Shown here: piece by piece, positions 7,000 through 7,458 of the stretch
Numbering within the stretch: the first letter of the stretch is position 1
How the letters are laid out: the number at the start of each line of letters is the position of its first letter
Source: Escherichia coli
GTDB lineage: Bacteria; Pseudomonadota; Gammaproteobacteria; Enterobacterales; Enterobacteriaceae
DNA length: 9,434 nucleotides
Direction: 5' to 3' (one strand)
Assembly: GCF_003334255.1 (NCBI RefSeq)
Contig: NZ_QOWU01000088.1
Notes under the pieces: generated by a model
The model's input: only the letters and a program-made list of their open reading frames with translations
Databases searched by the model: none
Told to the model about the DNA's origin: nothing
Made by a program: the position numbers and the translations under genes

Positions 7000-7458
7000 A
7001 TGAATCCCCTGCGTGTCGATCTGCGCGCTGGCACCTTCGCCGCAGATCCACTCTTCCAGACGCTCGCTAAGCGCTTCATCCGTCAGCTTCTCGCGCCCAC
7101 GTAACGCGCACTCCCAGACAATCAATACGCGCCAGCCGAGTTCCTGCAAGCGACTGATATCGCGGCGATCGCGCTCAACATTTTTACCTATCTTCTCCAG
7201 CCAGAACTCGGTTCGAGTCGCAGGCACTTTAAACAGATAGCAGTGATGATGATGCCAGAAGCAGCCATGGGTAAATATCACGCAGCGATATTCATCAACG
7301 ACAAAATCCGGGCGTCCGGGCAGACTGGCGTCCTGAACGCGAAACGCCAGTCCCTGCCCGGTTAACAAACTGGCGAGGCGCTTCTCAATCGCCGTATCAC
7401 GCGTGGCAATCGCGCGCATATTTTTGCTGCGTGTGGCCTTATCGTGAACATCGGCCAT
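6988..7458 (-). CDS. vsr: Vsr, very-short-patch repair endonuclease (156 aa)
   Basis: Translation from ATG 7456-7458 is [71 protein letters not shown]..., recognised as Vsr. The tracked 210-aa ORF is an artefactual 5' extension into dcm. Confidence 0.9.

Follow-up and report, generated by a model that had tools for sequence, protein, structure and literature searches.

How is a repair gene translated when its start codon lies inside the last codons of the methylase gene upstream, and does such a pair stay functional when the gene before it has been disrupted? We examined these questions at the dcm-vsr locus in a 9,434-nt stretch of Escherichia coli DNA, hereafter the window. On its minus strand, dcm, encoding a DNA-cytosine (C5) methyltransferase, was found at 8857..7439 (472 codons plus TAA, with the start as in K-12 and RefSeq), and vsr, encoding the very-short-patch repair T:G mismatch endonuclease, at 7458..6988 (156 codons plus a stop). 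The original prediction had placed a 20-nt overlap of the two genes in different frames at 7439-7458, and the sequence and its translation showed this to be exact: the overlap, stop codon included, covers 7439..7458 (-) with the vsr frame shifted by one base (+1) against that of dcm. The dcm TAA is at 7441..7439 and the vsr ATG at 7458..7456, 17 nt upstream of the dcm stop, confirming that vsr begins within the last dcm codons in the other frame. The final dcm codons read ...CAA CAT GGC CGA TGT TCA CGA TAA, and vsr opens with ATG GCC GAT GTT CAC GAT AAG.... A Shine-Dalgarno (SD)-like element for vsr, AAGAGG, lies at 7465..7470 (-), 6 nt 5' of the ATG and within the dcm codons Gln-Glu-Ala, and its predicted anti-SD pairing is -5.8 kcal/mol. 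The gene limits agree with the RefSeq annotation of E. coli MLI023K1 (NZ_CP116913.1), which is 100% identical to the window over 78..9434. At its other end, vsr meets the convergent gene yedA (6079..6999, plus strand), and the 3' ends of these two genes overlap by 12 nt (6988..6999), as in K-12.

The identities of the two proteins were established using family profiles, sequence motifs and a crystal structure. Dcm matched NCBIfam NF007772 at 950 bits (cut-off 710) with residues 1-469 covered, and TIGR00675 at 349 bits; its Pfam domains are PF00145 (E = 1.8e-76) and, at the N-terminus, PF18284 (E = 4.8e-19). C5-methyltransferases share an FxGxG motif for AdoMet binding, a PCQ motif that carries the nucleophilic Cys, and ENV, QxRxR and GN motifs, and in Dcm these are present as FAGIG(93), PCQ(176), ENV(224), QHRER(274) and GNS(435). 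Cys177 was invariant in 54/54 orthologues. The protein is 99.6% identical to K-12 Dcm, from which we infer that it methylates the inner C of CCWGG, and the two differ by E301G and R470C. Position 301 is highly variable (S/T/A/E/Q/D/R/G/K) among the 54 orthologues. A longer reading of the gene, a 485-codon ORF from 8896, was rejected as an extended Dcm. In the yedJ-dcm spacer (8858..8896, minus strand), the window and K-12 differ by a 1-nt indel that brings the ATG at 8896 in frame with dcm, and the extension is not conserved; the conserved dcm start is the annotated 472-codon one.

Vsr scored 182.7 bits against TIGR00632 (cut-off 97.85), which we take, together with PF03852, to represent the Vsr family. 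When compared with crystallised E. coli Vsr (PDB 1cw0_A), it aligned over residues 2-156 with E = 6.7e-106 and T131S as the sole difference. The translation contains D51, T63, H64, C66, F67, W68, H69, H71, C73, W86 and C117, and residues 51, 64, 66-69, 71, 73, 86 and 117 are the same as in 1cw0. Among them, we take Asp51 and His64/His69 to be catalytic and Cys66, His71, Cys73 and Cys117 to be Zn ligands, while Phe67/Trp68/Trp86 are presumably the intercalating residues. The 1cw0 chain begins at Ala2, which fits the vsr ATG as the annotated start of the recombinant construct.

We then compared the locus with K-12 MG1655, to which the window is 98.4% identical over 1539..9360. In MG1655, vsr (2030448..2030918) and dcm (2030899..2032317) also overlap by 20 nt, at the same place as in the window, in agreement with the earlier description of the overlap as a known arrangement. 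Descriptions of the dcm-vsr overlap go back to about 1990, and the one found here is the ordinary, long-known E. coli arrangement and not a new one. An alignment to K-12 had been proposed as the check on the original prediction. Base by base, it revealed equal gene lengths and no indels, frameshifts or internal stops in dcm or vsr. There were 25 substitutions and 2 amino-acid changes in dcm (no gaps, 98.2% nucleotide identity) and 8 substitutions and 1 amino-acid change, T131S, in vsr (no gaps, 98.3% nucleotide identity). The arrangement had also been called preserved intact. This holds for the length and frame of the overlap and for the lack of indels, but not for every base, as the coding strand has T at 7450 where K-12 has C. 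This is the only substitution inside the overlap; it is silent in vsr (Asp3, GAT for GAC) and produces R470C in Dcm. At position 470, Arg occurs in 40/54 orthologues and Cys in 14/54, and because the same Cys is found in these 14, R470C in the variable Dcm tail looks neutral.

The conservation of the junction was examined within and beyond the species. Of 5426 complete E. coli genomes, 5308 carry the 55-nt dcm/vsr junction over its full length, and only 148 of these share the window's exact 55-mer, a minority allele. When species-representative genomes were scanned with the Vsr protein, 80 syntenic Enterobacteriaceae loci were obtained, nearly all with yedA convergent downstream of vsr. In 55 of the 80, an intact dcm adjoins vsr with a +1 overlap, which measures 20 nt in 47 loci, 17 nt in 4, 14 nt in 2 and 35 nt in 2. 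Two loci, in Buttiauxella sp. B2 and Enterobacter sp. Ag1, have the dcm stop 11-34 nt before vsr, so that the +1-frame overlap is present in 55/57 Enterobacteriaceae species with an intact dcm adjoining vsr. In 4 loci, all from Buttiauxella species, dcm lies about 0.9-1.0 kb upstream of vsr; in 13 (Kosakonia, Phytobacter and others including some Enterobacter) there is no dcm and vsr follows yedJ by 19-40 nt; 2 have a dcm remnant or an internal deletion; and 4 have neither dcm nor yedJ upstream of vsr. Since the junction is kept in 5308/5426 E. coli genomes and the +1 overlap in all 55 of the adjoining loci, the overlap is no chance coincidence of open reading frames. The Vsr N-terminus encoded in the overlap is nearly invariant (D3, V4 and H5 at 100%) while the Dcm tail varies freely, and the overlap sequence is therefore dictated by vsr. 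The overlap is thus maintained with protein-level constraint on only one of its two frames. In most cases dcm stops at the TAA made by the vsr Asp6-Lys7 codons GAT AAG, and a purine-rich GAG element is kept at the place of the vsr SD in most orthologous loci. Kosakonia indica retains a dcm remnant of 50 codons, which suggests that dcm was lost from the orphan loci rather than gained by the others.

Gene identities are clear, the frames and motifs are intact, and the overlap is kept as in K-12 and across the Enterobacteriaceae. Co-transcription, coupling and expression in this strain we infer from the literature or by reasoning. We consider it probable that the locus is a canonical enterobacterial dcm-vsr module, in which both genes share one mRNA and Vsr is made from its own ATG, with initiation helped by dcm translation. 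Dcm would methylate the inner cytosine of CCWGG; where the resulting 5-methylcytosine deaminates to give a T:G mismatch, Vsr would nick 5' of the T, in CTWGG/CCWGG, and start very-short-patch repair. With dcm and vsr on one mRNA, Vsr would be made as a separate protein, using its own ATG and a moderate SD (AAGAGG) embedded in the last dcm codons. Ribosomes finishing dcm would cross the vsr initiation site and terminate beside it. Because the vsr start is 17 nt upstream of the dcm stop and ribosomes terminate nearby, their passage would be expected to aid vsr initiation by translational coupling, tying repair capacity to methylase synthesis.

Published work has described dcm and vsr as one operon, and Vsr expression as regulated, with repair mainly in stationary phase. 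According to one article (PMC4444293), the two genes partially overlap, and vsr activity is lost as well in dcm-6, a nonsense mutant at codon 45; for the latter it cites Dar and Bhagwat (1993). The dcm-6 result fits translational coupling, but it fits transcriptional polarity too. The original prediction had taken Vsr translation to depend on ribosomes translating dcm, which is a firmer reading than this indirect citation allows. A full-text literature search for translational coupling of vsr with dcm found nothing. The strength of the ribosome-binding sites was also compared. The SD pairing of overlapped vsr genes had a median of -5.8 kcal/mol and became as weak as -2.8 kcal/mol, whereas that of the 13 orphan vsr species was stronger, with a median of -8.4 kcal/mol (Mann-Whitney p = 0.0003, a value not corrected for phylogeny). 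Weaker SDs where dcm overlaps are what coupling would allow, and the difference is suggestive of it.

We also considered a hairpin that would mask the vsr SD and AUG until dcm is translated, and this candidate was rejected after fold, alignment and covariation tests were all negative. In the minimum free energy fold of the E. coli sequence, the vsr SD, the AUG and the dcm stop fall in a 21-bp imperfect hairpin, but this was no more stable than shuffled sequences (z = -1.08). The hairpin was not predicted by RNAalifold on 55 species, and across these species its paired cells amounted to 67.3% compared to 67.5% in shuffles. The sole pair scored as covarying (columns 30/79) was unpaired in 24 of the 55 sequences. 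Citrobacter changes (GUCGC/GCGAC) that seem compensatory by eye were likewise set aside, as the formal tests rejected the hairpin.

The main alternative for the dcm-6 phenotype is Rho-dependent polarity. On this account the overlap would be a by-product of a compact genome, vsr would initiate independently, and Vsr would be lost in dcm nonsense mutants through polarity; we regard it as unlikely, although it is the most serious competitor. The dcm-6 stop at codon 45 leaves about 1.3 kb untranslated, a classic setting for polarity, and vsr has a recognisable SD of its own, AAGAGG at -5.8 kcal/mol, at a proper spacing. The fold, RNAalifold and pair-count tests found no conserved structure masking the ribosome-binding site. 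In addition, because 13 species keep vsr without dcm, vsr has no intrinsic need of dcm translation. Against this account, a +1 overlap persists in 55/57 species although the Dcm tail is free to vary, and it is only in vsr genes overlapped by dcm that the SD gets as weak as -2.8 kcal/mol. Moreover, Dar and Bhagwat reportedly found in 1993 that efficient Vsr synthesis needed upstream dcm translation. A further alternative, in which ribosomes shift by +1 within the overlap and so make Vsr as part of a Dcm-Vsr fusion, is permitted in principle by the +1 register and yet has next to no likelihood. Each of the 55 overlapping loci keeps an ATG or GTG start with a suitably spaced SD, and the orphan vsr genes of 13 species begin at that codon too. 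The overlap contains no conserved slippery or stall motif, and the crystallised active Vsr (1cw0) is a protein of 155-156 residues. The reading we favour is that vsr initiates independently at its own ATG, with help from ribosomes that reach it through dcm.

Whether the pair is expressed in this strain depends on what remains upstream of it. The yedJ gene survives as a remnant at 8923..9360 (-), consisting of codons 87-231 plus stop with the 5' part lost; homology to K-12 ends at 9360. The remnant matched profile positions 87-229 of 231 in NCBIfam NF007515 with a score of 277.8 bits, which falls short of the 286 cut-off, and RefSeq lists it in the identical genome as an incomplete HD-domain pseudogene. 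From 9361 to 9434 follows the left end of IS1 (GGTAATGCTGCCAACTTACTGAT..., plus strand), with insA reading away from dcm, and the element runs off the window. In MLI023K1, an IS1 transposase is annotated on the plus strand of the locus at the matching place, followed by hchA without its N-terminus. Compared to K-12, the IS1-associated deletion has removed 5' yedJ, drpB (yedR), rseX, yedS and 5' hchA.

Several other features of the window were observed. An IS1 right end (...AAGTTGGAGTCATTACC) occupies 1..77 in the same orientation as the left end from 9361, and the window looks like a complete short-read contig ending in collapsed IS1 copies. The fliR gene is interrupted by the IS1 at 1..77 and persists as a 3' remnant at 78..217; in MLI023K1 it is intact. 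The gene for a cellulose-regulating diguanylate cyclase, dgcQ (2863..4557, minus strand), has an in-frame stop at 3624..3622, so that it is broken into two ORFs, of 311 and 251 codons, and in the identical genome RefSeq annotates it as a pseudogene ('internal stop'). An Rfam scan of the window at gathering thresholds detected nothing in the dcm-vsr region and only the DsrA small RNA at 1766..1852 (-), full length (RF00014, 102.5 bits).

The original prediction had held the pair to be likely functional even though yedJ is disrupted. Its coding capacity is indeed intact in the K-12 alignment, but the 5' part of the K-12 operon has been replaced by IS1. In K-12, long-read transcripts from SMRT-Cappable-seq place yedR-yedJ-dcm-vsr in one operon; the supplements of that paper contained no dcm, vsr or yedJ entry, and a literature search on a dcm promoter or yedJ gave nothing relevant. 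Because IS1 replaces everything upstream of yedJ codon 87, transcription of dcm-vsr would have to start at a promoter within the ~500 bp that are left or at the IS1 end. When 6800..9434 was scanned for sigma-70 and terminator consensus sequences, no promoter-like site appeared on the minus strand and hits were no more numerous than in shuffles, which makes the scan weak evidence.

These observations bear on the possibility that dcm and vsr are intact but poorly or not expressed here, the IS1-associated deletion having taken the promoter(s) and the genes now decaying. The joint yedR, yedJ, dcm and vsr transcripts of K-12 speak for it, as does the position of vsr 19-40 nt after yedJ in species lacking dcm, a gap too short to hold a promoter, so that vsr must there be transcribed with or from within yedJ. 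So do the orientation of insA away from dcm, the failure of the simple sigma-70 scan to find a consensus-like promoter upstream of dcm, and the decay of the neighbours (a nonsense codon in dgcQ; fliR, yedJ and hchA truncated). We nevertheless consider this improbable. A scan for a weak consensus is no evidence of absence, and about 500 bp are retained upstream of dcm that could hold a proximal promoter. Furthermore, the identical yedJ::IS1 junction was found in 464/5426 complete E. coli genomes and the IS1::hchA junction in 432/5426, O26 EHEC included; because of these numbers, the IS1-associated yedJ-hchA deletion is an old or widely spread polymorphism. Both genes are full-length in two diverged carriers, AR436 and O26 RM10386, unlike what neutral decay would leave. 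Relative to the window, dcm has 19-22 and vsr 15-35 substitutions there, mostly at synonymous sites with few amino-acid changes. This pattern argues for continued purifying selection and therefore for expression in yedJ::IS1 carriers, and dcm-vsr is likely to function in this strain. It is doubtful that the yedJ::IS1 lineage lost a native yedR-yedJ promoter and now transcribes dcm-vsr from a promoter internal to yedJ or a hybrid one at the IS1 end. If this were true, the promoter switch would give Dcm and Vsr a dosage unlike that of K-12-type strains, and the mutation load from 5-methylcytosine would change with it.

The O26 strain RM10386 showed a further peculiarity. Its vsr is 35-36 nt and 7-8 amino acids away from those of the window and K-12, with T63A among the changes, and its overlap has GTC (Val2) in place of GCC. 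Its dcm is closer to both, at 22-23 nt and 2-3 amino acids. The contrast indicates that recombination has made the locus a mosaic, with a breakpoint close to where dcm meets vsr.

With an overlap present in nearly every E. coli genome, the locus has little significance beyond its correct annotation. It does show a dcm-vsr pair that is intact in a segment otherwise marked by IS1 insertions and pseudogenes, and the lone base change in the overlap is silent for Vsr and falls in the freely varying Dcm tail. For the often-repeated view that Vsr needs dcm translation, we found no conserved RNA structure behind the claim. The +1 overlap in 55/57 species, and the 13 orphan vsr genes with a stronger ribosome-binding site, may be of interest for methylation-linked mutagenesis.

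Finally, the locus can be set beside known systems. Its closest counterpart is K-12 dcm-vsr (b1961-b1960), which has the same gene order, strand relation, 20-nt +1 overlap and SD, with yedA convergent downstream and yedJ upstream. Unlike K-12, the window carries E301G and R470C in Dcm, T131S in Vsr and one changed base in the overlap; its yedJ is cut short by IS1, and drpB, rseX and yedS are missing in the identical genome. The orphan vsr loci of Kosakonia, Phytobacter and relatives share with the window an orthologous Vsr (78-86% identity), the yedJ-yedA locus and the position of the start codon, but they lack dcm and the overlap and have a stronger, stand-alone SD. Translationally coupled overlapping pairs are known from bacterial operons in general, for example trpE-trpD and trpB-trpA. 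As in dcm-vsr, the downstream start in these pairs lies in or beside the end of the upstream gene and the SD is within the upstream coding sequence. The likeness is one of geometry. The dcm-vsr overlap measures 20 nt whereas the common ATGA/TAATG type measures 1 or 4 nt, and a ribosome terminating at the dcm stop would therefore have to move back 17 nt to reinitiate at vsr.
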